A stretch of 64,000 bases of DNA from a virus (IMGVR_UViG_3300037310_000564:16708-80707), one strand, 5' to 3'; shown: positions 18,145-61,087, counted from the first letter of the stretch. The notes: a model not told the origin generated them from the letters alone. Program-made: numbers and translations.

Positions 18145-18171
18145 TTATCGGCCTTTTTCTAAAAAACTTTA
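18145..18171 (-). promoter_or_regulatory. sigma28/FliA-type promoter
   Basis: TAAAGTTT-N11-GCCGATAA, an exact consensus match, 41 bp before ATG 18104. Confidence 0.85.
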
Positions 18172-18177
18172 GTCAAT

Positions 18178-18205
18178 AAAAAACCCCCTGATATATCAGG
18201 GGGTT
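18178..18205 (-). terminator. Intrinsic terminator after major capsid gene
   Basis: Perfect 24-bp palindrome AACCCCCTGATATATCAGGGGGTT plus a U-tract on minus; second hairpin TCCCGG-N5-CCGGGA at 18222-18238. Confidence 0.85.
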
Positions 18206-18254
18206 AGTATGCCATAATGTATCCCGGTTTTGCCGGGACCTTATTGTGACACTA

Positions 18255-19778
18255 TTACTGATCTACTCCGCGTCGTTTTTGGAACACGTTATCAATCACA
18301 GAAAAAGAACGAGGAGCTTGAACCATACAAGCAAAGTAGCTTACGAACAAGGTCTGTAATGCAAGACCGTTACGGCCAAGCTCAAGCTTGTTCATCATGC
18401 TGTTAGAACCAATGGTCAACATTTTTGCCCTGTTTTTGTCTTTTGGAACCAACAACATAGAGCAAAGACCTGGAAGCAACCGACCAGCATCGCGGAAAAT
18501 GGTTGAGCCACCGTTTGACTTCATGATATTGCCAATGAACATTTCTGTTCCAGCCAAGCCAGAAGTTTCCACTGGAGTGCGGAATACCGCGTAGTATTCA
18601 ACCTCAGCGCTATTGGTGATGGTCACATCTATTGGGAAGTTGTCTTGGCCTGCACCAACAGTGATCGAAGTGGCGGTAGATGCCAAAGATCGTCCATTGA
18701 TGTTAATAGCCTGAACTCGGTATCGGAAAACGTTGCCAGCAACAAATCCGGAACCAACCGCTGCACCGCCCATAGCCGTAGAGTGGGCAGGAGTGCTTGG
18801 CAAAGGACCAGAAGAGGTTGCCGAAGTAGCATTAGGGAAATCTCGTAGGTATTTGAACCTATTAGCGATCAAGGTAATGGTGCCGGCGCAAGTATCAATT
18901 GGTAATCCGCCGTGCTCATCATTAGTAACAGCAGCTCCACGGATTGCAAAAGGAGTATTGATATCTCCACGCTCTACTGGGAAGAAAGTAGCCCTAAATG
19001 CTTGCAAAGCAGAAGAGGTGGTATGACCTTCTGCAACTCGATTTCCATTGTCCCTAACGGCTGTTACATAAGTATCAAGACTTTCTCGACCGATAGCAGC
19101 GCCGCGTTGGTCAAAAACCACGCCTCGTGAAGCTTGTGTTGCTTCCCAGTCTTGTGGGATACCTCTAGCAGAGGCGTTACCTTCACGAACATTGGCTTGG
19201 ATACCTCGAATAGAACGAAGCCGGCTATTCACGGAAGCAGCAACCATTGGATCGATGGCACCAGAAGAATCCATGAAGTAGTCGCCACCATGATAAAAGT
19301 CACGCTCCATTTGTTGTGACATCAATAGAGCTGCATCTCGCTCATTTTCTTCTTCAACATCAATGGCATAACCATTAAGGTCATTTATCATTTCAGTCAT
19401 GTGGCCAATAGTTTTGGCGGTTCCGTACACTTTTAGAACCTCAGAAACCATCATGTACTGAGAGCTAACTTCTGCAGGCATGAAATTTTCAAAACCAGCT
19501 AAGTCATGGTCACCCAAGCCGATTTTGATGCGATAGTGATGAACTGAGCCCCTAACTGCTTGAGTTGGGATGTCTTTGATCAACAAAAAGTCTTTGTCTT
19601 CGATCGTAATAGATCGAATCACTTCATCCAAGCTATCAATGGTCAATGCGGCTTGACCTACACGACCACCCACTTCTAAGTTTTGATAACCAGCGCTTGG
19701 CCAAGATTTGGCGAGGGTGTCCATCGCCGTTTTTGCTTGTTGGATAAGATCCAACGAGAGATTTTTTAATGCTGACAT
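18255..19778 (-). CDS. Major capsid protein, Herelleviridae Cps-like
   Basis: TLAKSW...GQAALTIDSLDEVIRSITIEDKDFLLIKDI parallels the recalled phage K/A511 Cps N-terminus (VVKSF...AGALRREILDDQITMLTW..DLIFYRDI); C-terminal beta insertion; strong terminator follows. Confidence 0.85.
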   Translation of the reverse strand: MSALKNLSLDLIQQAKTAMDTLAKSWPSAGYQNLEVGGRVGQAALTIDSLDEVIRSITIEDKDFLLIKDIPTQAVRGSVHHYRIKIGLGDHDLAGFENFMPAEVSSQYMMVSEVLKVYGTAKTIGHMTEMINDLNGYAIDVEEENERDAALLMSQQMERDFYHGGDYFMDSSGAIDPMVAASVNSRLRSIRGIQANVREGNASARGIPQDWEATQASRGVVFDQRGAAIGRESLDTYVTAVRDNGNRVAEGHTTSSALQAFRATFFPVERGDINTPFAIRGAAVTNDEHGGLPIDTCAGTITLIANRFKYLRDFPNATSATSSGPLPSTPAHSTAMGGAAVGSGFVAGNVFRYRVQAININGRSLASTATSITVGAGQDNFPIDVTITNSAEVEYYAVFRTPVETSGLAGTEMFIGNIMKSNGGSTIFRDAGRLLPGLCSMLLVPKDKNRAKMLTIGSNSMMNKLELGRNGLALQTLFVSYFACMVQAPRSFSVIDNVFQKRRGVDQ

Positions 19779-19831
19779 TTGATAATATTCCTATAAAAAA
19801 TAAAAAATAGTGCCGGACTGACACAATAAAA

Positions 19832-19840
19832 ATTTTAACA
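19832..19840 (-). promoter_or_regulatory. TGNTAAAAT motif upstream of capsid gene
   Basis: TGTTAAAAT on minus strand, flanked by a duplicated ACACAATAAAA. Confidence 0.5.
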
Positions 19841-19887
19841 CAATAAAATAGTGTAATTTCGCCGCGTTGTCGGTCGTCTGAACAAAC

Positions 19888-19916
19888 TTGACAAATCATT
19901 ATTAAAACAATAAAAT
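19888..19916 (+). promoter_or_regulatory. sigma70-like promoter
   Basis: TTGACA-N17-TAAAAT upstream of 19937. Confidence 0.75.
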
Positions 19917-19936
19917 CAACATGATGGAGGGTGTCT

Positions 19937-20713: not shown

Positions 20714-20731
20714 TAATATTAAGGAGTTACA

Positions 20732-22575: not shown

Positions 22576-22576
22576 T

Positions 22577-23002: not shown

Positions 23003-23017
23003 AATAATCTCACTTGC

Positions 23018-26569: not shown

Positions 26570-26596
26570 TTAAGTTTTTTGGAATAATGCCGATAG
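26570..26596 (+). promoter_or_regulatory. sigma28/FliA-type promoter
   Basis: TTAAGTTT-N11-GCCGATAG. Confidence 0.7.
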
Positions 26597-26615: not shown

Positions 26616-26753
26616 ATGGATGGACAACACTTTAACAGAATGGATAGACAAAGAATGAAAACAGCAATTACCGCTTATGCATTAATGGCTCTGTCAGTTA
26701 TGGCTGGGTATTTTTTAGCCTATGGTGTCTATGTGACATTTTTAACACCATAG
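26616..26753 (+). CDS. 45-aa single-TM peptide (below ORF-track cutoff)
   Basis: MDGQHFNRMDRQRMKTAITAYALMALSVMAGYFLAYGVYVTFLTP; sits directly behind a sigma28-type promoter; alternative start 26655. Confidence 0.5.
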   Translation: MDGQHFNRMDRQRMKTAITAYALMALSVMAGYFLAYGVYVTFLTP

Positions 26754-26766: not shown

Positions 26767-28638
26767 TTATTTGATAGGACAGGCCCCGCCCTCACAATCA
26801 TCAACAGAAGATGCCCCAGATAAAAACATAGCCTCAACATCCACTTCTTTCAGTTTGCTGCTTTTCTCCTCAAACACTTCTTTGGTAATAGCTTCCCATG
26901 GTGCCTGTTTGAACCCATGGTCATTATGACACAGAAAAGAAATGGTTTTTAGTTTGCTGTAATTATCTGCAAGCCATTGTTTTATAAAAGGAATTTCTTC
27001 TTTTCGATAATAAACCGTCACGGAAACGGCTTGGTCAGACCAACACTCTTGGGCCATAAGCAAGGTATCGAGCTGTTTTTGCAAAGTCCATCCCTCGTCT
27101 ACACAAGGAACAACATCTGGAACTTGTTCATAAAAATCAAATACTTGAGTATTGTGATTAAGAGATCCATCAAACTTAACCTCGGGTTCGCTATAATATC
27201 CGGCCGCCTTCAGGATCGGAACAAGGCGGTCGTTTGATGCCAACCTTACTCGCTGGATCATATACCGAGAATATCCACCATGGATACCAGCCGACCATAA
27301 ATGATCAAAAACCTTACTTAAGGTCCCGCTTGGCTTAATCACAGTAGTCCGAATGGATTCAGGTTGGTTAAGTTGCTTAGAATATTCGTAATTTTCCTTT
27401 TGAATGACTTTGTATACCCTATCAAGAACCTGTTTATTGAACAGGTCTGGTCTAGCCAGACATCCTGTTATGCCAACGCCCACTCTTTGATTTTTAGAAA
27501 TGATGGCATGGCAGTTCTCGTGATGGTAGTTTTCCAAGGCCACCCTTTTTGCATAACGGAAACCTAGTGTGGCCGCCAGCTCAAAATCCACGACCGAATT
27601 TAGATTTGGTAGGGAGATCTCAAAAAGATTGCAACTTTCTCCATCCTCTAAGGTTGCTTCGGCACATGGATTAACCCCAACAGCATCATCATTCTTTAGT
27701 TCACCCATCCTTCCATATTTTTGCATATTCTTTCGGTTACATAGTCCAATAGGCTCTCCATTTAAATAAGATTCCCAAAACAGGGGATGGAGATCTTCAA
27801 CGTTCTCAGCAACTACGCTCCAGTTGCCCATGGCTCTTTCTGTAGGAAGGGTTCCAAGATCCCACCTTTTACACTTCAGGTATTCTTTATCCCATGGATC
27901 TCCTAGGAGGAGGAGTGCTGATCTGCGTATGTTTCCTGAAACGATCAGCTCGCCGGTGCAGCAAATCAAGTCGGCGACATCAATGGGTCGTAAATGTTTT
28001 TTCCCCCTGGCTTGCAAAATTCTACACACCTTTTCAACAAAAAGATGCATGGCCATTGGCCCTGAAGATACGCCACCAAATCCTTTTATAGGCTCGCCGG
28101 CGCCCCGAATACATACCGTGCTATATGAGAAGCTTTTCCCTGTAATAAAGAAAGATTCCAAAATCTTCTTTGTGAGCTCACACCAACCCTCTCGGGAGTC
28201 AGGGACAATAAAGTCAGCGTCCTTGGTGTTCTTCAAAACAACATTAACACCAGGCTTCACTTTTTTAATTTTGGAAACAAAGCGGTGCTCCACCGATGCA
28301 CCAATCCCACCCCCAAGCATCAAAAGATCTTCAATTGTGACCAGCTTGAAAATATCATCCATAGAAAAATACCAACAATTACATAAGGCTGCTCCGCCCA
28401 AACGACTATGAGTTGTGGTGCCCGACATCCACAGACCGCGTCCAGCGGGCGTACCTTTACGTTTCATCATCAGGTCTGTAAGCAGTTCCCGCTCATTGAT
28501 AAAAATATGGTCTGGGTTGCTGGTATTTCCTGCCACGACCCTTTTAGTCATTTGCTCCCAGTTCTCAAAGTATCCATTGTCATTTCTTGAATACGTCCTT
28601 GCAAACACAAATTTGGCAAAATTAGACCACTGAGTCAT
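26767..28638 (-). CDS. nrdJ: Class II (B12-dependent) ribonucleotide reductase
   Basis: FVFARTYSR, PAGRGLW, LCNCW, GNIRRSA, VNPCAEATL, TTVIKPSGT, C-terminal CEGGACPIK. Confidence 0.93.
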   Translation of the reverse strand: MTQWSNFAKFVFARTYSRNDNGYFENWEQMTKRVVAGNTSNPDHIFINERELLTDLMMKRKGTPAGRGLWMSGTTTHSRLGGAALCNCWYFSMDDIFKLVTIEDLLMLGGGIGASVEHRFVSKIKKVKPGVNVVLKNTKDADFIVPDSREGWCELTKKILESFFITGKSFSYSTVCIRGAGEPIKGFGGVSSGPMAMHLFVEKVCRILQARGKKHLRPIDVADLICCTGELIVSGNIRRSALLLLGDPWDKEYLKCKRWDLGTLPTERAMGNWSVVAENVEDLHPLFWESYLNGEPIGLCNRKNMQKYGRMGELKNDDAVGVNPCAEATLEDGESCNLFEISLPNLNSVVDFELAATLGFRYAKRVALENYHHENCHAIISKNQRVGVGITGCLARPDLFNKQVLDRVYKVIQKENYEYSKQLNQPESIRTTVIKPSGTLSKVFDHLWSAGIHGGYSRYMIQRVRLASNDRLVPILKAAGYYSEPEVKFDGSLNHNTQVFDFYEQVPDVVPCVDEGWTLQKQLDTLLMAQECWSDQAVSVTVYYRKEEIPFIKQWLADNYSKLKTISFLCHNDHGFKQAPWEAITKEVFEEKSSKLKEVDVEAMFLSGASSVDDCEGGACPIK

Positions 28639-33170: not shown

Positions 33171-33548
33171 TCACATCTTATTCCTATCTATATTCTCCTA
33201 ATGGCGATAATTTATAATGACCTGATGATAGTCCGAGAAAATCATTGATAAAAAAGTATCCCCTAAAGGTTTTTTTAAAAATATCCGATAAGAGTATTAG
33301 CTTTCTTGTTGTACTCCTGAAAGGGGCAGAGAAAGCACTTTCGCCTGGTCTTCCGAGGTTGGATCACCTAATTCATTTTGGGTGGTCCTTTTTTTATTCC
33401 TCTCAAGTCTATCGCCTTGGCACTCTGTTAAGGTCCATGGTGCCTATGGTAACATTGCCTCACCTTCACATCTTATTCCTATCTATATTCTCCTAATGGC
33501 GATAATTTATAATGACCTGATGATAGTCCGAGAGAATCATTGCTAAAA
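33171..33548. repeat. 83-bp direct repeat, two copies (33171-33253 and 33466-33548); candidate replication origin
   Basis: TCACATCTTATTCCTATCTATATTCTCCTAATGGCGATAATTTATAATGACCTGATGATAGTCCGAGA(A/G)AATCATTG(A/C)TAAAA; 2 mismatches; period 295 bp. Confidence 0.95.
33264..33291 (+). promoter_or_regulatory. sigma28/FliA-type promoter
   Basis: TAAAGGTT-N12-TCCGATAA immediately after the first repeat copy. Confidence 0.6.
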
Positions 33549-33684
33549 TGTTGTTCAGGACTGGCATAAGCCACTTTTTGGGTTATGATCTAGTAATCTA
33601 ACTATATACAAACCCTCACCAATATGGCAAAATACAGTCTGGGAAATTTGTTTTTGTCTTTTGTTGTTTCTGCCAAGGATATTG

Positions 33685-35793
33685 ATGTTTTACGTTAAAC
33701 CTAAAAGAAAAAAACGACATGAAAAAGGTCTAGAGAAGTTAGTCCAACAGAAGAGTTTGCCTGAAGACTTCCCCCTTAAAGAGATTTGGGAATCAGAGGT
33801 TAGTAGTGGTGATAATACTTATGGCACCCCTTATCTGTTTAAGCCAATATCTTTAGTTCAGCCACAAAAAGACCCTAAAACAGCAAAACCATTGTCAGAA
33901 TTAGGATTTGAGTATACTTGTGTACGCAAATATACCACTACTTCTGGTAGGGTATACAGCACCCATTACTATAGAAAAGTCAAAAAGAGATCTGCCAAAG
34001 AAATAGAAGCTGACCAAAACAACAAGAGCCCTACTAGGTTAGTAAAGCCTAGATGGCATCAGGTACCCGCTCATCCCAATAGTGTCTTTCTGCCTATAGA
34101 TAGTAGCAAGATTTATCAAGCCATGGCTAAGACTAACTTTTTTCTTAAGCATTATCAAGACATGAGATTTACCATCAGCTCACGCAGAGATGCTTGTATT
34201 GATGGCAATACTGGACCGAGATGGTCCAATGTTTCTGTACAGACCTTCCAAAAAGCAGTAGTAAACGTCCCGGACTTACAGGCCTGGGCCTTTTTTACCA
34301 AATGGGCAATTAAGGTTCCTGAAGCCAAGGATAGTGCAGAAGAGTTGTATGACTCTTTCACGGGATACCACAATGACTATCCAACCATGGTTCCTAATAA
34401 CCATGAGTATTATGTTGTTGATATTGATGATCACCCAACATACAAACAACCAACCGATATTGTTGAAGATTTTGAAAATAGAAGTGTGCCAATGCCAATT
34501 ATCATTGCGCAGACTGGTCCATGTAATTTCCATCTATTGTTTTGGTTCCCTAAAAGGGAAGGTGTTCTTGGTACCCATCAGAATAGAGTGTTCTTTTGTT
34601 CCAAAATAGCTGGAATGGTTAAGTTTCCTAAGACCGACAAGGAAGCTGAACAGGAGTTAATTAAAAGGGGCATTGATTACAGGCACTTAAGTAATGGGTA
34701 CTTTCAGCCTAAAATTAGAATGGCTGGAATTACCAAAAGAAAAGAAAATAAAGATCCTTATTTGGTTCATTGGTTTTTTACAGGATCTTTAAATAAAAAC
34801 AATCACTTAGGGGAAGAAGTTTATTTAGGGTGGGATAGTTTCTATCATAATTTGGATAATATGGTTCTTAATCCTGCCAGGCCAGCCAAACTCCTTTATC
34901 CTAGGGCCAATATCGATAATCCAGACTTAACCCCTGATGAAAGGGATCGATTAGCAGCAAAAGTTGCACAACGCCACTTAGACAATATTCATATGCTTAT
35001 GGAAGAGGCTAAAACAGCAGATGCTGAAAGGTATGAAGAAATTGTCCAACATATTGAAAATTCACAAACAATCATCAAAGAACGCATTGAACAAGAAATA
35101 GAGGCTAAGGCAAAAAAACAAAGGCAAAAGCGCACTCTACAAAAGGAAAAAAAAGAAAACAAATGGAAGACTTATATTGGACCAATAGCCAAGTCCATAA
35201 GAAACGCTGGTCTTTTTCAAACCAAAAACGCTCACATTATTGCCTCACACCTTACCCAACATTTGGGCTTCCTATTTAGGAAAAATTGCTTTTTACATCA
35301 AAGCTTTATGGCGAAAGAGACGGGACTTGAGCAGCCATATTGCTCACTTGCTCTCAAGAAATTAGTTCAAAGCGGATATTTGGTTGTTATTAAAGAGACT
35401 AAGATAGTTATAGATAGTGCTGGCTTGTGTAGAAAGACACCTAAGGTTTATGGAATTGGTCCACGACTGCAAAAAGTAATTGATCAGGTAGATGAGAGGC
35501 TTTCCAAAGAAAAGCCAAAAGAGTTTGTTAAAAAACAAAAAGAAAATTACGATGTTGAGGCTCCATACCAAGACGGGAAGGCCAACGAACACATCATGGC
35601 CGATGCTCGTCACTTTATTAAACATCTGGAGATGTCTCCATTGGAGGCGGCAACCAAGATAATTAAAAAGCAGGAAGTGCGACCACGACATAAGCGACGG
35701 TCTTATAGAGAAATCATGAGAATGTGTGAGAAATACCTCTTTTTTCTTAAGGAGTATCGCAAAGATAGGCCATTTCTTTGCCCCTCAGGATAG
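33685..35793 (+). CDS. AEP-superfamily primase-like protein with C-terminal winged HTH (Rep-like)
   Basis: YYVVDIDD (motif I hhhDhD), QTGPCNFHLLF (motif II His), coiled coil, then SFMAKETGLEQPYCSLALKKLVQSGYL wHTH. Confidence 0.6.
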   Translation: MFYVKPKRKKRHEKGLEKLVQQKSLPEDFPLKEIWESEVSSGDNTYGTPYLFKPISLVQPQKDPKTAKPLSELGFEYTCVRKYTTTSGRVYSTHYYRKVKKRSAKEIEADQNNKSPTRLVKPRWHQVPAHPNSVFLPIDSSKIYQAMAKTNFFLKHYQDMRFTISSRRDACIDGNTGPRWSNVSVQTFQKAVVNVPDLQAWAFFTKWAIKVPEAKDSAEELYDSFTGYHNDYPTMVPNNHEYYVVDIDDHPTYKQPTDIVEDFENRSVPMPIIIAQTGPCNFHLLFWFPKREGVLGTHQNRVFFCSKIAGMVKFPKTDKEAEQELIKRGIDYRHLSNGYFQPKIRMAGITKRKENKDPYLVHWFFTGSLNKNNHLGEEVYLGWDSFYHNLDNMVLNPARPAKLLYPRANIDNPDLTPDERDRLAAKVAQRHLDNIHMLMEEAKTADAERYEEIVQHIENSQTIIKERIEQEIEAKAKKQRQKRTLQKEKKENKWKTYIGPIAKSIRNAGLFQTKNAHIIASHLTQHLGFLFRKNCFLHQSFMAKETGLEQPYCSLALKKLVQSGYLVVIKETKIVIDSAGLCRKTPKVYGIGPRLQKVIDQVDERLSKEKPKEFVKKQKENYDVEAPYQDGKANEHIMADARHFIKHLEMSPLEAATKIIKKQEVRPRHKRRSYREIMRMCEKYLFFLKEYRKDRPFLCPSG

Positions 35794-41869: not shown

Positions 41870-41897
41870 TTAAGTTTTTAAGTAGATTTGCCGATAA
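41870..41897 (+). promoter_or_regulatory. sigma28/FliA-type promoter
   Basis: TTAAGTTT-N12-GCCGATAA. Confidence 0.7.
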
Positions 41898-41929: not shown

Positions 41930-42697
41930 ATGTTTCAATTATTTATCGTTTTTTTGGTATTGGCTATATCATGCCGACCATCGCCTTGGCAAGTAAACAT
42001 ATCTGACTCAGATCTGACCAGGAAGCACATGGAAGCTCTATACAAAATTGACAAAAAAACACCTCTTGTTTTTGCAATTATTGGCGATACCCAAGCCGTT
42101 CCTGAATCTTTTTATCAATCTATTCAATATCTTAATGAACGTGACGACCTACATTTTATAGCCATTGCTGGAGATCTAACAGACGTTGGTTGGAGCGCCG
42201 AATGGGACATCCTTGGAAAAATCATTAAAAAAAGCAGGGTTCCGGTTTTTACAGTGGTGGGAAATCACGATGGACTGAATTATGGCAAAAAAATTTACAA
42301 AAAGATGTTTGGTCCATTAAATTACTGGTTTGAGTATAACGGCTATCGTTTTGTGTTCTGGAACAACAATAGTTATGAATGGGAAAATGAAGTTGATATT
42401 GGGTGGTTAGAGGAAAGTATTACACCCAACTCTATTGTATTTGCACATCAGCCCCCAAACAGCAAAGCATTACCAATAGAGGCTGAGCAACGATGGTTGG
42501 TGGCTCGTCAGAAAGCTGTAATGTCTTTACATGGCCACACACACAAAGAGCAAAACCCGGGGAATCGAGTTTATGTGGTGGGCAGAGTGCCGGAATATGC
42601 AATTGTCTCAATTAATGGCCGGGCCGTGTCTATTGAGAATTGTAAGCCACAAGACAAGCATATTTGTAAACAGGCGGTATCATATGAAAATCAGTAA
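41930..42697 (+). CDS. Lipoprotein metallophosphoesterase (CpdA/Icc-like)
   Basis: Lipobox LAISC; IGDTQ, AGDLTD, VGNHD, AHQP and HGHTH motifs. Confidence 0.85.
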   Translation: MFQLFIVFLVLAISCRPSPWQVNISDSDLTRKHMEALYKIDKKTPLVFAIIGDTQAVPESFYQSIQYLNERDDLHFIAIAGDLTDVGWSAEWDILGKIIKKSRVPVFTVVGNHDGLNYGKKIYKKMFGPLNYWFEYNGYRFVFWNNNSYEWENEVDIGWLEESITPNSIVFAHQPPNSKALPIEAEQRWLVARQKAVMSLHGHTHKEQNPGNRVYVVGRVPEYAIVSINGRAVSIENCKPQDKHICKQAVSYENQ

Positions 42698-43255: not shown

Positions 43256-44233
43256 ATGATCCTATGTGTTGGCGACGCTCACTATAAGAAAAACAATGCT
43301 TTATTGACGGATATGTTTCAGCAAGAGCTGCTAATGCTGATCGAGCAAAGGAAAATAAAAAACATAGTACTTTTAGGGGATTACCATGATTCATGGGACA
43401 TGATCTCCTCCCCGGTCCTGAACAGGTTATTTAATTTTTTCGTTGAATTAAGTACCGTGACCAATGTTTATTATGTCGTCGGCAATCACGACCTTATTAA
43501 CAATAACCAATTTTGCTCTGAAGAACATTTTTTTAATTCTTTCAAGACCATTCCCAATGTTTTCATTATTGATAAGCCAGTGACATATATGGTTGGAGAT
43601 GTATTGGCTGCTTTTATTCCTTTTGTGGTGGATGGGAAATTTAATGAGGCATTGCAGCAAATTAATCAAAAATATCACATACTTTTCACCCACAATGAAT
43701 TCAGTGGTGCAATAATGGGCAGTTTAGTCAGCACCTCTGCCAACTCATGGCCAATTACCAACCCACTTTTGGTGTCTGGCCATATTCACACCAAACAGTG
43801 GCTACAAAAAAACTTGTATTATCCAGGAGTTCCGTACGACATCCATTTTGAAAATGAAGACTCAGCTGACAAAACCGTGTCTATACTCACCACCAACCAA
43901 AGAGGATTTGACGTCGAGGAAATTTGTCTTGGATTGCCCACAAAAAGAATCTTGAAGATGACCATTCAGGAATTTGAGTCGCACAAATGGAATGAAAAAA
44001 CACTCTCTTCCATAAAAGTCCTGGTTTCTGGAACGCAGGAAGATCTAACGGCATTAAGCAAAAGGATGAAAAACATCCCCAAAAACATTAAAGTGGTGTT
44101 TACTCCAATTAACTCCACATCCCAGCAAAGAGAAAAAAGAGCTGTTTCTTTTATCGACTCTTTGATGGAACTGACACAAACAGAGTCTGAAGAGATTAGG
44201 GATTTAGTTAAACAGGTGGTGGATGAGACATGA
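43256..44233 (+). CDS. SbcD/Mre11/gp47-like nuclease
   Basis: VGDAHY, LGDYHD, VGNHD, FTHNE and SGHIH motifs; adjacent to SbcC-like gene. Confidence 0.9.
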   Translation: MILCVGDAHYKKNNALLTDMFQQELLMLIEQRKIKNIVLLGDYHDSWDMISSPVLNRLFNFFVELSTVTNVYYVVGNHDLINNNQFCSEEHFFNSFKTIPNVFIIDKPVTYMVGDVLAAFIPFVVDGKFNEALQQINQKYHILFTHNEFSGAIMGSLVSTSANSWPITNPLLVSGHIHTKQWLQKNLYYPGVPYDIHFENEDSADKTVSILTTNQRGFDVEEICLGLPTKRILKMTIQEFESHKWNEKTLSSIKVLVSGTQEDLTALSKRMKNIPKNIKVVFTPINSTSQQREKRAVSFIDSLMELTQTESEEIRDLVKQVVDET

Positions 44234-46392
44234 TCCACCTAAATCTAAAAAAATTCAAGCAATTTAGTGACTTATCCATAGAATTACCCGAAACTGGCTT
44301 AGTCATGCTTTCAGGGCCTTCTGGTGCGGGCAAAACATCAGTCTTTGAGGCCATGCGGGAAGCGTTGTGGGGAGATGGGGATGATGTTCAACCATGGGGC
44401 AGCACAAAGAGTTGTGTTGAATTGAAGGCATGGGGACTTAACATCACACGATCACGTGGCTCTAGGTCTTTGTTGGTAAATGGTAAGCCAGACGCTCAAG
44501 GGGAAGAGCTAATTGAAAATGCTTTAAGAATGGATGTTCATGAATTCATGGCCAGTTCCTATATACAACAAAAGCAGAAAAACTCTCTTTTATCACTAAC
44601 CCCGGCAGAACAATTAAGGTTTGTGCAGCGGTTAGTGGCTGGTTCAGTGGACCCTGAGCTGTTTAGGTCCAAACTTGCTGTAATTAAGCAACAGGTGGAT
44701 GCTGCGCTGGATGCTATGAAATGGCAACAGGCCAAAATGGAAAGTGAAAAAGAGTCTTTGCAAAATCAGGTTGGTGTGTTGTTAATTCAACTGAATGCCA
44801 CAGTCACACCAAATGGTATGACGGATGAACAAATTATTAATAATTACAATATGTTGAATAAGGCAAATGAAGAGATCTTAGCCTGCTCTAAAACGATTGC
44901 GCAGCTATCTGCGGCAATTCAGCAAAATCACTTCAACAAAACGCAAAAAAACAATCTTAACAACAGAAGGGTGGAACTGTTAGACTCTATTGCCAAAAAA
45001 CAACAAACGCTCCAAACTCTTCAGCAAAAAATCAATAAAAGGGATGACTTAGAGCAAAAATTGATTGAAAATACTCACCAAAAAGAACAATATCAAAAGG
45101 TAATTGAGTTTTGGCATTGGAATGAAAAAAAAGACAGCTTCGTTACCTCTTTGGGATTGGAGCTGGGAGGATCTACTGTTGGCGATGCATTACAGAGATC
45201 AATCCAGGAACTCGAGAATAGACATGGTGCTTACCAGCAGAGCGCCCGAGACCTCTCGCGTACAGTGGATCTAATGCAGCTCAACAAAGGTAGCCATTCC
45301 TGCCCAGAGTGCGGCACTGCCTTGGGTATCGACAAGGGGAACATTGTCAAAAAAACAGCATTTGATCATGCGATGTTTCAGGCCAAGACCGATGAATTGT
45401 CCGCTCTAACAACTAAAATCACTAAGACCGGCGATGAGATTAGGGTGCGGCAATCTCATCTTATTCAATATAATGATTTAATAGGAATTTATAAAAACCT
45501 TTTAGTAAAAAAAGCCACCATTCCGAAAGAAGAGGCGCAAAAACAAATCCAATTCCTTTCCCAGGAAAATGAAAAAATAACTAATATTCTTGAGGATGTG
45601 CGGGCAAATTCAAAAGCCATCAGTTTATTAGATGACGACTTAACAGTTTTTGCTAAAAAGGTGGCCGAAATTGATTCTGAGATTTCTGCCATTGGACAGA
45701 TCGATGAGTCTTCCATGTTGGCCGAAAAGGAGGCGATGGATAATAAGCTTAAGGATTGGCACTCTATTAAGTTGACAGTTTTTAATGCCGCCGAAGACTT
45801 TCAAAATTGGAGCCAAACAAAGGCCAAAAAAGAAAGCATAGAAATGACCGTTAAGTCATTAAACCACACGATTCAACAAAAAGAACGGGATATTCAAGCA
45901 CTTAGCATAGATATAAAAAAACAGGCAGCAAAGGCCGGAGCCTGTAGGCGATTATTGGACCTAAGCAAACAAGCCTCCATGATGGCCATTAATCATTTGC
46001 TTGAAGAAATCAACTTTTACGCCACCACGACTCTTTCTGGCTTCTTTCCCTCTGAGGGAACATCCATCCGATTAAGAAACTCATACGAAACGCAAAAAGG
46101 TGAGCAAAAACCAAAAATTAGCTTAGAGATATTCCACAAAGGACAAACACCTAAGAAGCTTTCCTCCTTATCCGGAGGGGAGGAATCAAGGGTGACTTTG
46201 GCTTTTCAGATGGCCCTGTCTGAGCTATATAACTCTCCAATATTATTAGTAGATGAAGGATTTGTAGGCCTACCTTTGGAACAAAAACTGGAATGCCTTG
46301 AGATGCTTAAGCCAATATCCCAAAAGAAATTGGTTTGTGTAATTGAGCATGGCATGCCTGAGCACGTTTTTGACCAAATAATCTATATCTAA
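44230..46392 (+). CDS. SbcC/Rad50/gp46-like SMC ATPase
   Basis: GPSGAGKT, YIQQ Q-loop, coiled coil with CPEC zinc hook, LSGGE, LVDEG, IEH. Confidence 0.93.
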   Translation: MIHLNLKKFKQFSDLSIELPETGLVMLSGPSGAGKTSVFEAMREALWGDGDDVQPWGSTKSCVELKAWGLNITRSRGSRSLLVNGKPDAQGEELIENALRMDVHEFMASSYIQQKQKNSLLSLTPAEQLRFVQRLVAGSVDPELFRSKLAVIKQQVDAALDAMKWQQAKMESEKESLQNQVGVLLIQLNATVTPNGMTDEQIINNYNMLNKANEEILACSKTIAQLSAAIQQNHFNKTQKNNLNNRRVELLDSIAKKQQTLQTLQQKINKRDDLEQKLIENTHQKEQYQKVIEFWHWNEKKDSFVTSLGLELGGSTVGDALQRSIQELENRHGAYQQSARDLSRTVDLMQLNKGSHSCPECGTALGIDKGNIVKKTAFDHAMFQAKTDELSALTTKITKTGDEIRVRQSHLIQYNDLIGIYKNLLVKKATIPKEEAQKQIQFLSQENEKITNILEDVRANSKAISLLDDDLTVFAKKVAEIDSEISAIGQIDESSMLAEKEAMDNKLKDWHSIKLTVFNAAEDFQNWSQTKAKKESIEMTVKSLNHTIQQKERDIQALSIDIKKQAAKAGACRRLLDLSKQASMMAINHLLEEINFYATTTLSGFFPSEGTSIRLRNSYETQKGEQKPKISLEIFHKGQTPKKLSSLSGGEESRVTLAFQMALSELYNSPILLVDEGFVGLPLEQKLECLEMLKPISQKKLVCVIEHGMPEHVFDQIIYI

Positions 46393-46424: not shown

Positions 46425-46451
46425 TAAAGTTTTTCCCAAAAAGGCCGATAA
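46425..46451 (+). promoter_or_regulatory. sigma28/FliA-type promoter
   Basis: TAAAGTTT-N11-GCCGATAA, an exact consensus match. Confidence 0.85.
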
Positions 46452-46508: not shown

Positions 46509-46721
46509 GTGTATGTAAAAAAAGCCAAATTTATTCTGAGGATGGCATTTATTAGGCAGTGGGCTATTCCGGATCTCATTGAGATTTATTACCCGGATCT
46601 TTCGCTGGACGAAAAATGCCAAATTTTGGACGAAGTGGAAAAATTAACATTTGGAGCAATGAATCATGAAAACTCTTACAACTATTGCATTAACGATGTG
46701 TGCGGCAATTTCTTGCACTAA
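46509..46721 (+). CDS. Small hypothetical protein
   Basis: 70 aa with GGGGG RBS behind the sigma28-type promoter; overlaps the next gene by 56 bp. Confidence 0.45.
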   Translation: MYVKKAKFILRMAFIRQWAIPDLIEIYYPDLSLDEKCQILDEVEKLTFGAMNHENSYNYCINDVCGNFLH

Positions 46722-47346
46722 TTCTCAGGAGTTAGACCAAGCAACTAAGAAAATAGAGCAACTGGTAAAACAAAACAAAGAACTTCAGGGAAGGGTGGAC
46801 AACCTAAACTTTATTAACACCATTCCTTTGTCCGAGATTGTGCTGCATACTTTGCAGGCCTGTAACACCAAACAATCTGAGGCAATGATTAATTATTACT
46901 CAGAAATGATTCCGCGCGTTTTAGAAAAACGCATTCCAAATGACCGATATGGCCAAATGTCTTTATTGTCAATGTTTTGCAAAGAGTCGGGATTTAATCC
47001 TCAAGCCCAATCCCCAACTGGTCCAAAAGGTTTGGGTCAAGTGGCCAAGGCGGCTTTTCATGAAGGTCTATCACGATGTGGCCTGCCGGCGGCCAAAGAC
47101 GATGATGTTTGGGTCCCAGAGCTAAATGTAACTGCTGCGGCTTGCTATTTTCAGCACCTATTGACGTTAGCTGGACCGGGGCGATATACTGTGGCCATGG
47201 CGGCATACAACCAAGGACCTAACTCCGAAGCTGTTAAAAACCTCCAAAAACACGGGAACTTACGTGGAGAAGAGCCAACAGCCTATGTATCTGGAGTGCA
47301 CAACCTGATTGAAAAGGTTAAAGTTTCCATTGCTGCGACCAAGTGA
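46666..47346 (+). CDS. Lipoprotein lytic transglycosylase (SLT domain)
   Basis: Lipobox AISC, coiled coil, KESGFNPQAQS..GPKGLGQV (catalytic Glu), AYNQG. Confidence 0.88.
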   Translation: MKTLTTIALTMCAAISCTNSQELDQATKKIEQLVKQNKELQGRVDNLNFINTIPLSEIVLHTLQACNTKQSEAMINYYSEMIPRVLEKRIPNDRYGQMSLLSMFCKESGFNPQAQSPTGPKGLGQVAKAAFHEGLSRCGLPAAKDDDVWVPELNVTAAACYFQHLLTLAGPGRYTVAMAAYNQGPNSEAVKNLQKHGNLRGEEPTAYVSGVHNLIEKVKVSIAATK

Positions 47347-47444: not shown

Positions 47445-47451
47445 GTTGTCA

Positions 47452-47658
47452 GTTGTGCCCCTATGCGGGGCGGAGAAAGGCCGAAGTCATGTCGCAGGTG
47501 TATGATGTGCCGTTGTGCCCCTATGCGGGGCGGAGAAAGCCTTTGTTGATATAGTTGGGCCAAAAGATGCTGTTGTGCCCCTATGCGGGGCGGAGAAAGA
47601 TGACGATACCACTTTCCTTGCCCAGGCAGAGTTGTGCCCCTATGCGGGGCGGAGAAAG
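47452..47658 (+). CRISPR. CRISPR mini-array: 4 identical 28-bp repeats, 3 spacers (32, 32, 31 bp), type I-F-like
   Basis: GTTGTGCCCCTATGCGGGGCGGAGAAAG at 47452, 47512, 47572 and 47631; 5-bp stem GCCCC/GGGGC, 5-nt loop, 8-nt handle; no cas gene in the window. Confidence 0.93.
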
Positions 47659-47677: not shown

Positions 47678-50600
47678 ATGAGCATTTTTAAACCTTTAGC
47701 GTGCGGATTTCACTCACACACTGACATTGGCAGTTTAGATGGCGGCTCCACAGTAGAGCGCAAAATCAAATATGCCAATAAAATTGGACGTATTGCTGAC
47801 TGTGTAACCGATCATGGCTTCATGCACGCATTGGCTCGCCATTGGGAATTTGCAGAAAAATGCAAAAAAGACAAAGAAAATCCATTCCATATCAAGAGTA
47901 TACATGGAATAGAATTGTATATGGTCGACCCAGACAGGCCATGGAAGGAAAACCGATCCAAAAAAATGGAGCCGCAATACTACCACGTCACGGTTCATTT
48001 CAAAACCCAAAAGGCCTATCAATATTTCTGTTCACTATCAAAAGCCATGAATGAAAGAAAAGTGGTTCGTTATGGAGAAGCTAAGCCTTTAATATTATGG
48101 GAAGAGTTGCTCCAAATCTCTGGCGAAATCACCGTTGGTAGTAGCTGTTTGGTAGGACCAGTTCAAAAAAACATATTGGCTGGACGGTCAGATTTAGCCA
48201 AAAAATGGTATGAAAAGCTTAGACACTTGGCCGGTAATGGCAATTTCTTTGTGGAGCTTTTCCCCCACATTATTGATAAGCAGTGGGAATCCCCAGTCAC
48301 TGCCAAGACCATGGTCTCCAAAATCAAAAAACAGATTAAGGAAGCATCACAGGCCGGACAGAGCACGGAATTACTGGAAAAAGAACTGGAGCGACTATCG
48401 CACATAAAAGAGCGGCAGATTATCATCCCCGGCGAGTTTGTTCCGGCAATCCAAAGAATGGATGAAGATGCCATAGACCCACCATTTATTGATGAATGCG
48501 GAAGTGGACTCATCGACATTCAGAAAAAGCCCAATGAATTTGTGCTAGAAATGGCAAGGCGCCATAACGATCCGGTTATTATTTCCTTGGATGATCACTA
48601 TGCTGCCAAATCTGACCAAATAATCCAAAATGCACGCCTCAGTAACGGCGGAAGTAGCTGGAAATTTTACGGTCTTTATGACATGAAAACATCAGAGGAT
48701 TGTGCCATTGCCTTAAAAAAACAACTGGGCTTGGTCGATTCTGACATTGAAAAGTTCATTGATAACAGCTACTTATTTGTAGAGCAATTTAAAGATTATA
48801 AATTTCAAACCATTAAGGATGGCATCCTGCTGCCAACCACAGACATGGTGTATGGAAATTTGTATACAGGAATGTCCACCAAGGACATTTTTAGGTCTTT
48901 GGTGGTAAAGCATAAGCGTTGGAAACCAGAGTGGGGACAGGAATATATTGACAGGATTCGCTACGAATTAGATGTGCTAACAAATAACGGTAAAGGCGAC
49001 TTTTTGCCGTACTTCTTTGTGGTTGAGGATGCCGTTGCGTTTTGTAAACAGCACGACAAACTGTTTAATGTTCGTGGATCAGCCGGCGGATCATTGGCCC
49101 TTTATCTATTGGGAGCATCTGTTACAGACCCCATAGCCTGGAACCTTCCCTTTGAGCGCTTCATGACCAAAGAGAGGATCGCTGAGGGCGCCATGATGGA
49201 CGCAGATTGTGACGTAGAGGAGAGAGATTTTGTCCTTAACTATTTGAAAAATAAGTACAAAGAAAACTTTGCCTTAATTAGTACAGACTTAAATCTAAAA
49301 TTCAAAAGCGCCATTAAGGACGTGCACCGAGATCTTATTGGGGTTGTTCCTCCCGAAATCGAAGAAATGTGCGTAATGATGCCGGCGGCTCCACAGGGCA
49401 TGTCCGACACTGACTTTTTGTTTGGGTATGTTGATAAAACCACCAAGACATATATGCCAGGGTTTTTAGAAAAAGAATCTATCGGCGCCACAATATTCAA
49501 ACAATGGATTGAGGAACATCCGGATCGGTGGGAAGTTGTAAAGACTTGTCTTGGTGTCAATAGGGCTCATGGCGTACATGCCGGGGGAGTATTACTAACC
49601 CCCAATCCCGTAACTAATTATATTCCCTGCTCTTATGATGATGGCATGCCTATTGCCAGCTATACGATGAAGGGCGTGGAATATGTTGGCGGTGTGAAGT
49701 ATGACTTTTTGGGTGTATCAACCCTTTTGGCCCTTGGTATTACCATGAGGTCAATTAAAAAGCATTTAGGGATTGAGTTGAAGTGGGAAGAGTTTCCACA
49801 CGACCCAGAGGTATTTGCCAAAGTATTGCACAACAATAAACTTACCTCTATCTTTCAACTTCATACACGCCTGGTTAGGCCTTTTGTAGTCAAAACATTG
49901 CCTAAATCTGTGCGCGACATTTCTGGCCTAATTGCGTTGGTACGTCCTGGAGCTCTGGACGCTGCTTCCCCTGACCCATCCTTTAATGGCAATGCCGCAG
50001 ACTTTTATTGTGCCGTAGCAAAAGGTGAAAAACAGCCATACTACATCCATCCTGACCTGGAGCCTATTTTTGGTGAAACAAATGGCATCTGTCTGTATCA
50101 AGAGCAATTACTGAGGTGTTTTAGGGATTTAGCCGGATATAGCTATGGCGAAGCTGAGGCCGTCAGGAGAGCTGTAGGTAAAAAAGTTAAAGAACTTATG
50201 GACTTACACTTAGGCATTTTGAAAAGCAGATTGTTAGAGCGGGGATGGAGTAACAGTCAGGCTACCGATCTATGCGAAACCTTAGTTAAGTCTGCCAGGT
50301 ACTCTTTCAATAAAGCCCATAGCGCCAGCTACGCCATTGTAGGATATAACGGCGCTTGGCTGAAACATCATTACCCGTTGCATTTTTGGCTGGGTGAGTT
50401 TGCAGTCAACACAGACAAAAGAGAGAAATTACGCATACTTATGATGGAAGCCCGTCATTTGGTTTTGCCGGTCAACATTAAGCACTCCCATGTTTCTGAG
50501 TGGACCATTGAGGGGGATAAGTTGCGTCCGCCACTATCTCTTCTGAAGGGCTGTGGCGAGAAAACCGCAATTAGTATTAAAAACGCAGTGTTGGGTATTT

Positions 50601-50692
50601 TTGGTGAAGGAAGTGGCGATATTGACATTGATGAGCATGAGGAATATGATCATGCCAGCGATGTTGAGGGTGAGCAGTATGGCGACAAATGA
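47678..50692 (+). CDS. dnaE: DNA polymerase III alpha, N-terminal part (PHP, palm, thumb, fingers, HhH)
   Basis: FHSHT, TDHG, RGSAGGS, DADCD, GVHAGG, KYDFLG, YQEQL, YSFNKAHSASYA; true start 47678 after GAGGAG. Confidence 0.95.
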   Translation: MSIFKPLACGFHSHTDIGSLDGGSTVERKIKYANKIGRIADCVTDHGFMHALARHWEFAEKCKKDKENPFHIKSIHGIELYMVDPDRPWKENRSKKMEPQYYHVTVHFKTQKAYQYFCSLSKAMNERKVVRYGEAKPLILWEELLQISGEITVGSSCLVGPVQKNILAGRSDLAKKWYEKLRHLAGNGNFFVELFPHIIDKQWESPVTAKTMVSKIKKQIKEASQAGQSTELLEKELERLSHIKERQIIIPGEFVPAIQRMDEDAIDPPFIDECGSGLIDIQKKPNEFVLEMARRHNDPVIISLDDHYAAKSDQIIQNARLSNGGSSWKFYGLYDMKTSEDCAIALKKQLGLVDSDIEKFIDNSYLFVEQFKDYKFQTIKDGILLPTTDMVYGNLYTGMSTKDIFRSLVVKHKRWKPEWGQEYIDRIRYELDVLTNNGKGDFLPYFFVVEDAVAFCKQHDKLFNVRGSAGGSLALYLLGASVTDPIAWNLPFERFMTKERIAEGAMMDADCDVEERDFVLNYLKNKYKENFALISTDLNLKFKSAIKDVHRDLIGVVPPEIEEMCVMMPAAPQGMSDTDFLFGYVDKTTKTYMPGFLEKESIGATIFKQWIEEHPDRWEVVKTCLGVNRAHGVHAGGVLLTPNPVTNYIPCSYDDGMPIASYTMKGVEYVGGVKYDFLGVSTLLALGITMRSIKKHLGIELKWEEFPHDPEVFAKVLHNNKLTSIFQLHTRLVRPFVVKTLPKSVRDISGLIALVRPGALDAASPDPSFNGNAADFYCAVAKGEKQPYYIHPDLEPIFGETNGICLYQEQLLRCFRDLAGYSYGEAEAVRRAVGKKVKELMDLHLGILKSRLLERGWSNSQATDLCETLVKSARYSFNKAHSASYAIVGYNGAWLKHHYPLHFWLGEFAVNTDKREKLRILMMEARHLVLPVNIKHSHVSEWTIEGDKLRPPLSLLKGCGEKTAISIKNAVLGIFGEGSGDIDIDEHEEYDHASDVEGEQYGDK

Positions 50693-54297: not shown

Positions 54298-54300
54298 TAG

Positions 54301-55654: not shown

Positions 55655-55682
55655 TAAAGCTGTTTTTGATGGTGCGGCATCG

Positions 55683-56216: not shown

Positions 56217-56220
56217 TTGT

Positions 56221-56784
56221 ATGAATCGCGATGAAACTTGTGGGCTAATTGATGAGATACTGAAAGGTTGGCAGCAAGGTCAGATTTTGGATGAGGCTTT
56301 TGCGGAGACTATGGGTGGCACATCGCTGACGACGGAACCTCCAATTCATAATAAGGAAATAAAGCCCGTGATAACGCCAGAAATACCAGAAACCATCAGA
56401 AAAGCCAAACTAACCAGTGACTTATACGCAGTTTGGTGCAATAATGAGGTTAAGAGTGTACTTACTAAACAACCAAATGGCGAAGCTGTTTGGGATGTAT
56501 TTACCCAGGCAATTCAAAAAGAAATTGAAACCATCATGACCGGCCAAGGGCCTAGTATTGTTGAAATTTCTGAAAAGATCCGCCTCACTGCCAATGAAAC
56601 GCAAGAAATATATGAAAAGATAAAGGCGATGAGTAACTCGCCTCTATTAAGTACGCTTAACTTGTTGCTGGATAGGCTTGGAGGTAGTACACCTGAGATA
56701 CGACAAAAAGAAGTTCCAGCGCCAATGCCACGTAAGCCCATTGGATATTCAGATCCAGAATATGACTTAGAAGGACTCCCATGA
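56221..56784 (+). CDS. Hypothetical protein, possibly chimeric
   Basis: Internal GGAG-ATG at 56311 suggests an alternative start. Confidence 0.55.
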   Translation: MNRDETCGLIDEILKGWQQGQILDEAFAETMGGTSLTTEPPIHNKEIKPVITPEIPETIRKAKLTSDLYAVWCNNEVKSVLTKQPNGEAVWDVFTQAIQKEIETIMTGQGPSIVEISEKIRLTANETQEIYEKIKAMSNSPLLSTLNLLLDRLGGSTPEIRQKEVPAPMPRKPIGYSDPEYDLEGLP

Positions 56785-57080: not shown

Positions 57081-57114
57081 TATCACACTATTAAACAAAC
57101 AAAGGAAAACAACA

Positions 57115-57435: not shown

Positions 57436-57439
57436 TTCA

Positions 57440-58829: not shown

Positions 58830-58832
58830 AAA

Positions 58833-59504
58833 ATGAAAACAACTATCGTTGCCTTATCGGGCACCAAAGGGTCGGGAAAAGACACAGCATGCTCAGCCAT
58901 GCTACAAATATTTCAGCCCAATATGGCCCAAAAAATAGCCTTTGCGGGCAGCATGAAGGCGGCCATATCTTCTGTTTTTGACATCCCTCTTGATAAATTA
59001 GAGGATCCGGTGGAAAAAGAGCGCCATGTGCGCATACCTTATACGCTGGAAGACCATTATCGAATGTTTGCCGCAATGGGTGTTACGTTTGGATCAAATA
59101 CCACATCCAAAATTGAAAAATTATACCATGATAATGGATTTACTGAATTTTTATCGATTCGGCAGGCAATGCAATTGTTGGGAACGGAAATATTAAGGGG
59201 ATTTGACGACCAAATTCATGTGAAGGCCGCGCTCAACAAAATTAAAACAGGTGGATTAAATATATTCACTGATTGCAGATTTAATAATGAAGTCCAGGCG
59301 TTAAAGAATTATGCTAAGACTGGCGCTAATTATGTGCATATTTGGATTGAGCGGGAGGGATATGAGGCTGACACTAACAGTCATGCTTCAGAGCCTAAGG
59401 ATAAGCTGGGTGCCCATATTACCATAAAGAACTGTAATTACGACACATTTTGTAGTACTGCACAATCAATAGCCATAGCTGCATGTATGGGCTTATACCA
59501 ATAA
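58833..59504 (+). CDS. Deoxynucleoside monophosphate kinase
   Basis: SGTKGSGKDT, RQAMQLLGTEILR, TDCRFNNE, HASE. Confidence 0.9.
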   Translation: MKTTIVALSGTKGSGKDTACSAMLQIFQPNMAQKIAFAGSMKAAISSVFDIPLDKLEDPVEKERHVRIPYTLEDHYRMFAAMGVTFGSNTTSKIEKLYHDNGFTEFLSIRQAMQLLGTEILRGFDDQIHVKAALNKIKTGGLNIFTDCRFNNEVQALKNYAKTGANYVHIWIEREGYEADTNSHASEPKDKLGAHITIKNCNYDTFCSTAQSIAIAACMGLYQ

Positions 59505-59637
59505 GGACGATGGACTATGAGTGAGGAACGGCCGGTAGATACGGCAGAGAAAGATGTGCAGGATATTAATCATCCACCTGTTAGTAAAAAATTTACCTTA
59601 CCGGTGAGCAGGAGAATTTTTACAAAAAGGGGCGACT

Positions 59638-59949
59638 CTAATTCTTAAAAAAGCTTATGGCGCCTGATACTACTGTAGCTATCATGGCGCCAATTAAGCC
59701 ACTTACCTTATAAATCAGCCCAACTTTATGGTCCAGTCTGTCTATGTCACGAATTCTATTGTGCTTTTCATTATTAATGGACAGATTAAGGTCTAAGATA
59801 TTGCGGTCAAGTTTGTCGTGGATCTCTTTAAGAACCCGTTTAATGTCAACCAATTCTTGATTAATGCGCTCTTGCTGAGTGGCCATGAACAAATCTCGTT
59901 CTTTTATTATGGCAATATCTGTTTTTATTGCCGAAATTTGCTCATCCAT
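59638..59949 (-). CDS. Coiled-coil protein with C-terminal TM (holin/antiholin or XhlA-like candidate)
   Basis: Heptads plus a C-terminal hydrophobic helix; in lysis cassette. Confidence 0.55.
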   Translation of the reverse strand: MDEQISAIKTDIAIIKERDLFMATQQERINQELVDIKRVLKEIHDKLDRNILDLNLSINNEKHNRIRDIDRLDHKVGLIYKVSGLIGAMIATVVSGAISFFKN

Positions 59950-60039
59950 CTTTGTTCCATCTCTGTTTTAAGAAGCCTTAAGGCCAAAAATCCAACACCT
60001 GTAAAAAATTTTAACATAGGTGCTGGAAAATTAGATAAC

Positions 60040-60531
60040 CTAAAACATCCAATCAAAACCAACACTTATGTCATGTTTTTTGATGTCGTAATCACCACGA
60101 ATCCACAGCGGTTTCCAGATCTTATAACCAGCGGAAATGGCGTAAGAAGAGGGGGGAATCCGTAAAGGATCTGAAAGGTCAATTACAGCTCGTGCACCAA
60201 TGGCATAAGATGGGCCGGGGGAAGTGGTGGTGCTGATTTCAGCCTTCTTTTCTTCGAGACGGACGGACTCTTTTTGTGTGTCGGTCTCTGAGTTTTCCAC
60301 GATGGTAGTAGTTTCAGTGCCGTCCTTTTGTTTTGTAATTACAGTCTTAACTTTTCTTTTTTCATGCTTTTTTTCAACTTCTTTTTCAACAATTTTTTCA
60401 ACAATCTTTTCTTGAATTTCGACACGACTATTTTGCTTGCCACGGTAATATCCTCCCAAAAATAAGGCACATCCTGCCACTAAAATTAATAATTGTTTCC
60501 AATACTTAAATAAAATGCTTATGGCTTGCAT
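60040..60531 (-). CDS. Membrane-anchored protein, i-spanin (Rz-like) candidate
   Basis: N-terminal TM, EKIVEKIVEKEVEKK; directly after the endolysin. Confidence 0.5.
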   Translation of the reverse strand: MQAISILFKYWKQLLILVAGCALFLGGYYRGKQNSRVEIQEKIVEKIVEKEVEKKHEKRKVKTVITKQKDGTETTTIVENSETDTQKESVRLEEKKAEISTTTSPGPSYAIGARAVIDLSDPLRIPPSSYAISAGYKIWKPLWIRGDYDIKKHDISVGFDWMF

Positions 60532-61013
60532 ATAGTACCTTTTAAATACAGCTCTTTTTCTGCCAAACGTCTTTTAGTAAGGCCTGGCAATTCTTTTCCG
60601 CCAGCCTTGTTCCATTTTAAAAACTCATCAGCGGCAGCGCCAAATTCATTGTTATTAATCAACTTAAGTAGCGTAGATGACTGGAAGTTTCCTGGCCCTA
60701 AATTGTAGGTAAATGATACCAACGCATCAAATTGCTCTTGTGATATTGATGACTTAACGGCTCGATTAACAACATCCTCAAACTTAACCAAATCTGCTTT
60801 GAGAATCTCTTCCGCCGCCTCTTTGGTGATAACATCTCCCTTTTTGACGTCAGGAAGGCCGGCTTTGGCTGTATGTCCATATCCAATTGTCCAAACGCCA
60901 GCGGAACATGTATAGGCATTAAGCATCAGGCCTTCCCATCGCTTAATAAGAGCCAACCCTTCCGGGCCGGTTCGGAATGCGTTTTTTGGTGTAGAGGTTA
61001 ACTTTTTGGCCAT
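60519..61013 (-). CDS. Endolysin, GH24 lysozyme
   Basis: WEGLMLNAYTCSAGVWTIGYGHT, QFDALVSFTYNLG, LPGLTKRRLAE. Confidence 0.95.
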   Translation of the reverse strand: MAKKLTSTPKNAFRTGPEGLALIKRWEGLMLNAYTCSAGVWTIGYGHTAKAGLPDVKKGDVITKEAAEEILKADLVKFEDVVNRAVKSSISQEQFDALVSFTYNLGPGNFQSSTLLKLINNNEFGAAADEFLKWNKAGGKELPGLTKRRLAEKELYLKGTICKP

Positions 61014-61049
61014 AAAAACTCCAATTCATTAATAAATTACCCAATTCGC

Positions 61050-61058
61050 ATTTTATCA
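61050..61058 (-). promoter_or_regulatory. TGNTAAAAT motif upstream of the endolysin
   Basis: TGATAAAAT on minus strand, back-to-back with the sigma28-type promoter. Confidence 0.5.
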
Positions 61059-61060
61059 AC

Positions 61061-61087
61061 TAAAGGTTTGCCTCAATCTTCCGATAA
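61061..61087 (+). promoter_or_regulatory. sigma28/FliA-type promoter
   Basis: TAAAGGTT-N11-TCCGATAA. Confidence 0.7.

Follow-up and report, generated by a model that had tools for sequence, protein, structure and literature searches.

To our knowledge, lytic phages have been described as relying on the housekeeping sigma factor of their host, on a sigma factor of their own or on a polymerase of their own. Phage-encoded sigma cascades are known from SPO1, with gp28 and gp33/34, and from T4, with gp55. Sigma-28 (FliA/SigD/WhiG), the sigma factor for flagella, has a promoter consensus that reads TAAAGTTT-n11-GCCGATAA in Escherichia coli (PMC2859248), and for the attack phase of Bdellovibrio bacteriovorus the consensus TTAAG-N16-CCGATA was described in 92 of 140 promoters (PMC3627812). 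Here we describe six sites of this type (S1 to S6) in a stretch of viral DNA of 64,000 nucleotides (nt), in the following called the window, which is part of an IMG/VR viral contig of 80.7 kb (IMGVR_UViG_3300037310_000564, bases 16708-80707; 42% GC; 49% complete according to CheckV). Judged from sequence comparison, the sites behave like a real and conserved class of sigma-28-type promoters. Positions are given in window coordinates unless the contig or another genome is named.

Sigma-28-type sites in the window

All six sites consist of a -35 and a -10 octamer separated by about 11 nt (N11 or N12), and an earlier note on this DNA had placed them correctly, both in position and in sequence. 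Two of them agree with the E. coli consensus at 16 of 16 positions, also as claimed there: S1 (18145-18171, - strand) and S5 (46425-46451, + strand), which both read TAAAGTTT-N11-GCCGATAA. The remaining sites lie on the + strand. S4 (41870-41897, TTAAGTTT-N12-GCCGATAA) has 15 of 16 matches, while 14 of 16 are found in S2 (26570-26596, TTAAGTTT-N11-GCCGATAG), S3 (33264-33291, TAAAGGTT-N12-TCCGATAA) and S6 (61061-61087, TAAAGGTT-N11-TCCGATAA). Beyond the window, 2.8 kb upstream of it, there is a seventh site that reads TAAAGTTT-N12-GACGATAA (contig 13843-13870, - strand). Altogether the contig carries two perfect and five near-perfect sites, as scored against the E. coli consensus.

The earlier note had also proposed a motif scan against a shuffled background. 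Seven sites of the contig match the consensus at 14 or more of the 16 positions, as compared to 0.1 on average, and never more than 1, in forty dinucleotide-preserving shuffles. The CCGATA hexamer by itself is not enriched (21 vs 15.4), and therefore the signal consists of both boxes combined. The sites thus stand out by their excess over chance and also by a promoter-like placement. All six had been described as intergenic and oriented toward the next gene, which is the case for S1, S4, S5 and S6 and needs qualification for the other two: S2 faces only a mini open reading frame (ORF) of 45 (or 32) amino acids (aa), and S3 sits 393 nt from the next gene.

The closest likeness is to the class 3 flagellar promoters of E. 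coli and Salmonella (PMC2859248). The same octamers are used with an 11-nt spacer, S1 and S5 being identical to them, and there is further agreement in the C that precedes them and in where the start base is likely to lie. Unlike class 3 promoters, the phage sites occur in a genome without flagellar or chemotaxis genes, where they head genes of replication, nucleotide metabolism and the envelope, and in the relatives small early-type genes. In the attack-phase promoters of Bdellovibrio, a sigma-28-type motif is likewise used far beyond the flagellar genes (PMC3627812); the mention of these promoters in the earlier note is accurate as a statement about the literature. The likeness extends to some details, as TTAAG opens both S2 and S4, the latter also having the N16 spacing. 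Most phage sites, however, have TAAAG with a spacing of the E. coli type, and no connection of this phage to Bdellovibrio-like hosts emerged.

Conservation in related phages

Among named phages, Myxococcus phage Mx1 comes nearest, as a distant relative with 31.5% identity in DnaE. Closer relatives were found in IMG/VR. Four contigs share about 41-42% DnaE identity, among them a 162.7-kb genome with terminal repeats that is rated complete (G002), and a further set of contigs shows 40-53% identity in the major capsid protein, including a genome of 182.7 kb with a CheckV completeness of 100% (G091). The two complete genomes stem from the IMG samples 3300043427 and 3300029288, and the window's contig stems from freshwater. 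All pooled counts given below refer to the window's own contig and 12 related IMG/VR contigs.

In three relatives, hits with up to two mismatches numbered 8, 17 and 7, while the reversed-pattern control gave 1, 0 and 1. Nine further relatives were all positive, with 47 hits vs one control hit. The motif is hence kept across a deep divergence, as reflected by the capsid and DnaE identities (40-53% and about 42%) and by a GC content of 37-56% in the scanned motif-bearing genomes.

A total of 86 pooled sites have at least 14 of 16 matches. Although only 5-15% of these genomes is intergenic, 67 of the sites fall into such DNA, and 66 of these 67 point toward the gene that follows. The distance to the start codon is 19-50 nt for 43 of the 66 gene-facing sites, i.e. 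about two thirds; the complete genome of 162.7 kb most often shows 21 nt, and a ribosome site stands within this stretch. The spacer is N11 in 52 and N12 in 14 of the 66 sites. Conservation extends into the flanks, with a C before TAAAG and a G after GCCGATAA (47/66 each), a T at +7 (46/66) and a purine at +8 (62/66), where a sigma-28 transcript would be expected to begin. This T-purine pair is present at five of the six window sites. The additional conserved positions agree with known sigma-28 promoters. Several of the sites in relatives, like S1, directly follow intrinsic terminator hairpins.

Regarding the genes behind the sites, those of the relatives are mostly small, soluble and lineage-specific, without homologue in the window. 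They are of the kind usually called early or accessory. The window fragment has no such blocks of small early-type genes.

The exact consensus TAAAGTTT-N11-GCCGATAA was found in at least 118 IMG/VR stretches, often in co-oriented clusters. Sigma-28-type phage promoters therefore look general and not special to this window, and no phage promoter class of this kind turned up in a literature search. We consequently see in the window no unique case but a further, well-supported example of a pattern that recurs and is apparently undescribed. Some of the IMG/VR stretches (e.g. L168, L139, L183) hold three to four co-oriented exact copies within 6 kb.

Which sigma factor could read the sites

A phage-encoded sigma factor would be expected as a gene with sigma-70 regions 2 and 4. 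No such sigma-70-family gene was detected in the contig or in the two complete relatives of 162.7 and 182.7 kb. The earlier note had seen no sigma factor gene in the window and had suggested a search with hidden Markov models (HMMs). This was run on the contig and on some of its relatives and gave no sigma with region 2, and the sole sigma-like match of the contig is a helix-turn-helix of the region-4 type on a metallophosphatase. The protein in question, a 387-aa ORF (g64, 39877-41040, + strand), was considered as a sigma factor and rejected, being a metallophosphatase (phrog_704) without region 2. Its residues 30-62 match sigma region 4 with an hhalign probability of 19%, and a homologue is lacking in G002, which is complete. 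In the same 162.7-kb genome, the Pfam models of regions 2, 4 and 4_2, TIGR02937 and the FliA/WhiG model TIGR02479 gave nothing.

Further models gave the same picture. A FliA HMM built locally from 29 bacterial FliA sequences was used with filters off on ORFs from all six frames of three genomes, namely the window's contig, a complete relative and one other relative, and found nothing; as a positive control, it does detect the divergent sigmas of the Mx1 type. An HMM of the Mx1-type family itself, applied in the same way to the same contig and two relatives, was equally negative. Profile-profile comparison of all 452 protein clusters from five genomes, both complete relatives among them, also showed no sigma with region 2, and its only match above 20% was a 97-aa ORF of the 182.7-kb relative that comprises region 4 only. 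Weak HMM matches at 56221-56784 of the window and, in G002, at its homologue (115130-115609) and the adjacent ORF (114740-115117) were discarded as acidic coiled-coil proteins. A diverged Mx1-type sigma was also sought by synteny and rejected, given that the slot holds GroEL, DnaB and nucleases and the family HMM is negative.

Other components of transcription were looked for in these phages as well. No match to a multisubunit (beta-prime-type) RNA polymerase and no FlgM-like gene was found. The Pfam model of the single-subunit (T7-type) polymerase had no match either, but it was silent in every control genome, and that search therefore shows little.

In the case of Mx1 (L025:2071-3078) and of a 158.6-kb relative (G004, L032:1072-2121, - strand), a divergent sigma factor of 335-350 aa is encoded. 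The family counts at least 137 phage proteins; their sigma region 2 is weak, and the contigs that encode them reach 181 kb. Pfam barely sees this family (17-20 bits). According to the searches described, the family is absent from the motif-bearing lineage. Conversely, the motif is lacking, with zero hits, in Mx1 and in G004, the one other sigma-carrying relative scanned. The comparison with SPO1, T4 and Mx1 thus has two sides. These, too, are lytic phages of large size in which different sets of genes have promoter classes of their own; the motif-bearing lineage differs in that no sigma gene is detected and in that its promoter follows a cellular and not a phage-specific consensus.

The 97-aa ORF is FliA/WhiG-like and lies in G091 directly behind a sigma-28-type site (L098:1450-1743, - strand). 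It reaches 37 bits to NF005809 and 95% in hhalign. The ORF that follows, of 113 aa, looks region-4-like by eye and has no Pfam or NCBIfam match. Homologues of the mini-protein were found neither in the window's contig nor in three other relatives, and no full-length relative was found. Such a region-4-only protein might act as a FlgM decoy or as a promoter competitor.

Given that no region-2 sigma was found and that the Mx1-type sigma gene is absent, the best reading is that the sites are used by the host RNA polymerase with the host's own flagellar sigma-28, which we consider probable, if with some reserve. The host holoenzyme would recognise the phage sites, the phage lineage having no sigma of that kind, and each transcript would begin about 8 nt past the GCCGATAA box, which for S2, S3, S4 and S6 predicts starts at about 26604, 33299, 41905 and 61095. 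The earlier note had allowed for either host FliA or a FliA-like sigma encoded elsewhere. The former is favoured, because two complete relatives carry the motif with no detected region-2 sigma, and the latter is disfavoured. Several points weigh against the assignment to host FliA. It is drawn from sequence, the contig itself is 49% complete, and the absence of a sigma is judged from two complete but distant relatives. The profile-profile searches were made with shallow alignments and can miss phage sigmas that have diverged very far. In one complete relative a region-4-only protein stands behind such a promoter, so that some phage factor may participate. In well-studied hosts, moreover, FliA is scarce and held by the anti-sigma factor FlgM, and for this reason it would be an odd choice for replication genes.

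The incomplete contig also leaves room for a phage-encoded sigma of sigma-28 specificity, located in the missing half of the genome or too divergent to be detected, as the 17-20 bits that Pfam gives to the divergent sigmas of the Mx1-type relatives illustrate. We think this unlikely, as two complete motif-bearing relatives were negative by HMM, six-frame and profile-profile searches, and as the FliA HMM is able to pick up the divergent sigmas of the Mx1 type; a factor with the exact -35/-10 specificity of FliA should, in addition, have kept recognisable regions 2.4 and 4.2. Another explanation brings in a small phage protein that reprogrammes or frees the host sigma, the sites then forming a middle class after early expression. 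Such a protein could imitate region 4 alone and either titrate FlgM or take the place of this region in a host sigma. The 97-aa ORF behind its sigma-28-type site, the ORF next to it that looks region-4-like by eye and, in the window, the phosphatase with its region-4-like helix-turn-helix all speak for such a helper. Still, a homologue of the mini-protein is missing from the window's contig and three other relatives, a search for full-length relatives was negative, and the mechanism is speculative and would again require host FliA for the -10 box, which makes this explanation distinctly improbable. The motif could finally be no promoter at all but a binding site of a phage regulator or a duplicated repeat element, as several spacers are alike (TTTTT..AAAA.G) in the window and close relatives. 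In distant relatives, however, the spacer sequences vary while both boxes stay constant. The fixed box spacing, the near-uniform facing of the next gene (66/67), the start-codon distance in about two thirds of the sites, the purine kept at the expected start and the terminators directly upstream are a geometry that makes a regulator site or repeat family very hard to sustain.

Under the assignment to host FliA, infection would be tied to a motile, FliA-active host cell. In the relatives, the sigma-28-type sites mainly head blocks of small, lineage-specific, early-type genes. In evolutionary terms, a lineage of uncultured myoviruses of about 160-180 kb would have given up the Mx1-type sigma and would run early or accessory genes and some replication genes from host sigma-28 promoters, with infection conditional on the motile, FliA-active cell; we find the arguments for and against this scenario evenly balanced. 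If true, the routine use of the host flagellar sigma would be a different phage strategy, and phage expression would be coupled to the motile state of the host. Non-motile hosts or fliA mutants would then be predicted to resist infection at the transcription step. FliA-conditional infection would fit a flagellum-dependent phage or a host with a FliA-run free-swimming stage. As a practical consequence, these phages would be a source of compact, portable sigma-28 promoters.

Genes and other elements around the sites

The source phage is a large, uncultured myovirus with a contractile tail, with genes for the tail sheath (13362-16166) and the major capsid protein (18255-19778), both on the - strand. 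S1 lies just behind the latter. An intrinsic terminator hairpin (CCCCCTGATATATCAGGGGG followed by a T-run, 18180-18205, - strand) stands after the capsid gene, and the 70 nt upstream of S1 fold at -29.5 kcal/mol. This terminator ends about 9 nt before the -35 box, and therefore S1 opens a fresh transcription unit. The predicted start is at about 18137, and the site is 40 nt from the ATG at 18104. The first gene encodes a protease of the ClpP family that has 268 aa and a hydrophobic segment at its N-terminus (17298-18104, - strand; PF00574, E 1e-7), for which PHROGs gives a weak call as head maturation protease (phrog_1684, E 2e-10). The S1 transcript would accordingly carry a membrane ClpP-like protease.

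S2 is located between two - strand genes. The sole + strand ORF behind it (26616-26753) encodes a single-pass membrane peptide of 45 aa, or of 32 aa if started from 26655, which the S2 transcript would express. It is convergent with a ribonucleotide reductase gene (26767-28638, - strand).

In the case of S3, the site is placed in a 590-nt gap at a switch of the coding strand. A second promoter-like box, TGCTAAAAT (33541-33549), lies between it and the next gene, which encodes a protein of 702 aa (33685-35793, + strand). This protein has no Pfam or PHROG match. Its language-model neighbours are RepB_primase, AEP-TOTE and DnaD_N (score 0.93), and as a lead only, it seems to resemble most closely replication initiators with primase-polymerase and winged-helix parts. 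S3 would transcribe this putative initiator jointly with a promoter of the housekeeping type.

Behind S4, the first gene encodes a calcineurin-like metallophosphatase (41930-42697, + strand), whose long form begins with a lipoprotein-like signal (MFQLFIVFLVLAISC). It is followed by SbcD (43256-44233) and SbcC (44230-46392), so that a lipoprotein-like phosphatase and SbcCD would be expressed from this site.

The predicted transcript start of S5 is at about 46459. The first solid gene behind it encodes a 226-aa SLT lytic transglycosylase (46666-47346, + strand; PF01464, E 1e-13) with a lipoprotein-like N-terminus (LTMCAAISC). After it come a repeat array without cas genes (47448-47658) and a gene for a DnaE-type polymerase (47678-50692), and an S5 transcript could cover all three. 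The array directly precedes the DnaE gene. It has four copies of a 28-nt repeat, GTTGTGCCCCTATGCGGGGCGGAGAAAG, between which the spacers measure 32, 32 and 31 nt. As a lead to the host, the repeat had no array match in species-representative genomes or JGI metagenomes; it gave one chance match in the former and none in the latter, where a looser pattern yielded single non-array matches. The names attached to homologues of the capsid or sigma proteins did not provide a usable host taxon either.

The box of S6 ends 2 nt ahead of the first ATG. As this annotated start is too near the box, and as the ATG at 61138 has an AAGAGG ribosome site, the latter is the likelier start. The likely first gene then encodes about 80 aa with a signal-like N-terminus and several cysteines (61138-61380, + strand). 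ThyX (61390-62739) and a helicase (62964 onwards) follow, and the S6 transcript would comprise the small secreted protein, ThyX and the helicase. The ThyX thymidylate synthase contains an intein splicing domain (PF14890, residues 67-221).

Because these downstream genes are mixed, the term regulon is loose for this window. Envelope-targeted proteins are encoded by four to five of the seven first genes in the contig, as compared to about 9% of all genes, which is a loose fit. A rule that sigma-28-type sites prefer envelope-targeted genes was discarded, since it fails in a complete relative, with one of 17 first genes. Other replication and nucleotide genes of the window are those for DnaB helicase and GroEL. 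Rfam and tRNA scans of the window found nothing.

Besides the sigma-28-type sites, the motif TGnTAAAAT was detected, an extended -10 of the housekeeping type with a weak or no -35. It stands before the capsid, sheath and other large structural genes, in the window at 16213, 19832, 24516, 7231 and other positions (- strand), and in G002 at 6646, 21218 and 83303. TAAAAT occurs 52 times in upstream regions where 11 are expected, and there are a few full TTGACA-N17-TAAAAT promoters. Together with the sigma-28-type sites, this makes at least two classes of promoters in the phage. Overlapping dual promoters of the housekeeping and sigma-28 types were considered and rejected, as TTGnnn stands at the right distance in only 8 of 66 sites (4% expected), none of the eight being in this window.

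In the seventh site of the contig, the -10 box overlaps a TAAAAT box (GACGATAAAAT). Downstream of this site, an array of about 16 tiny genes of 67-85 aa (contig 10014-13763) was found, in which the ribosome-site regions are near-identical.

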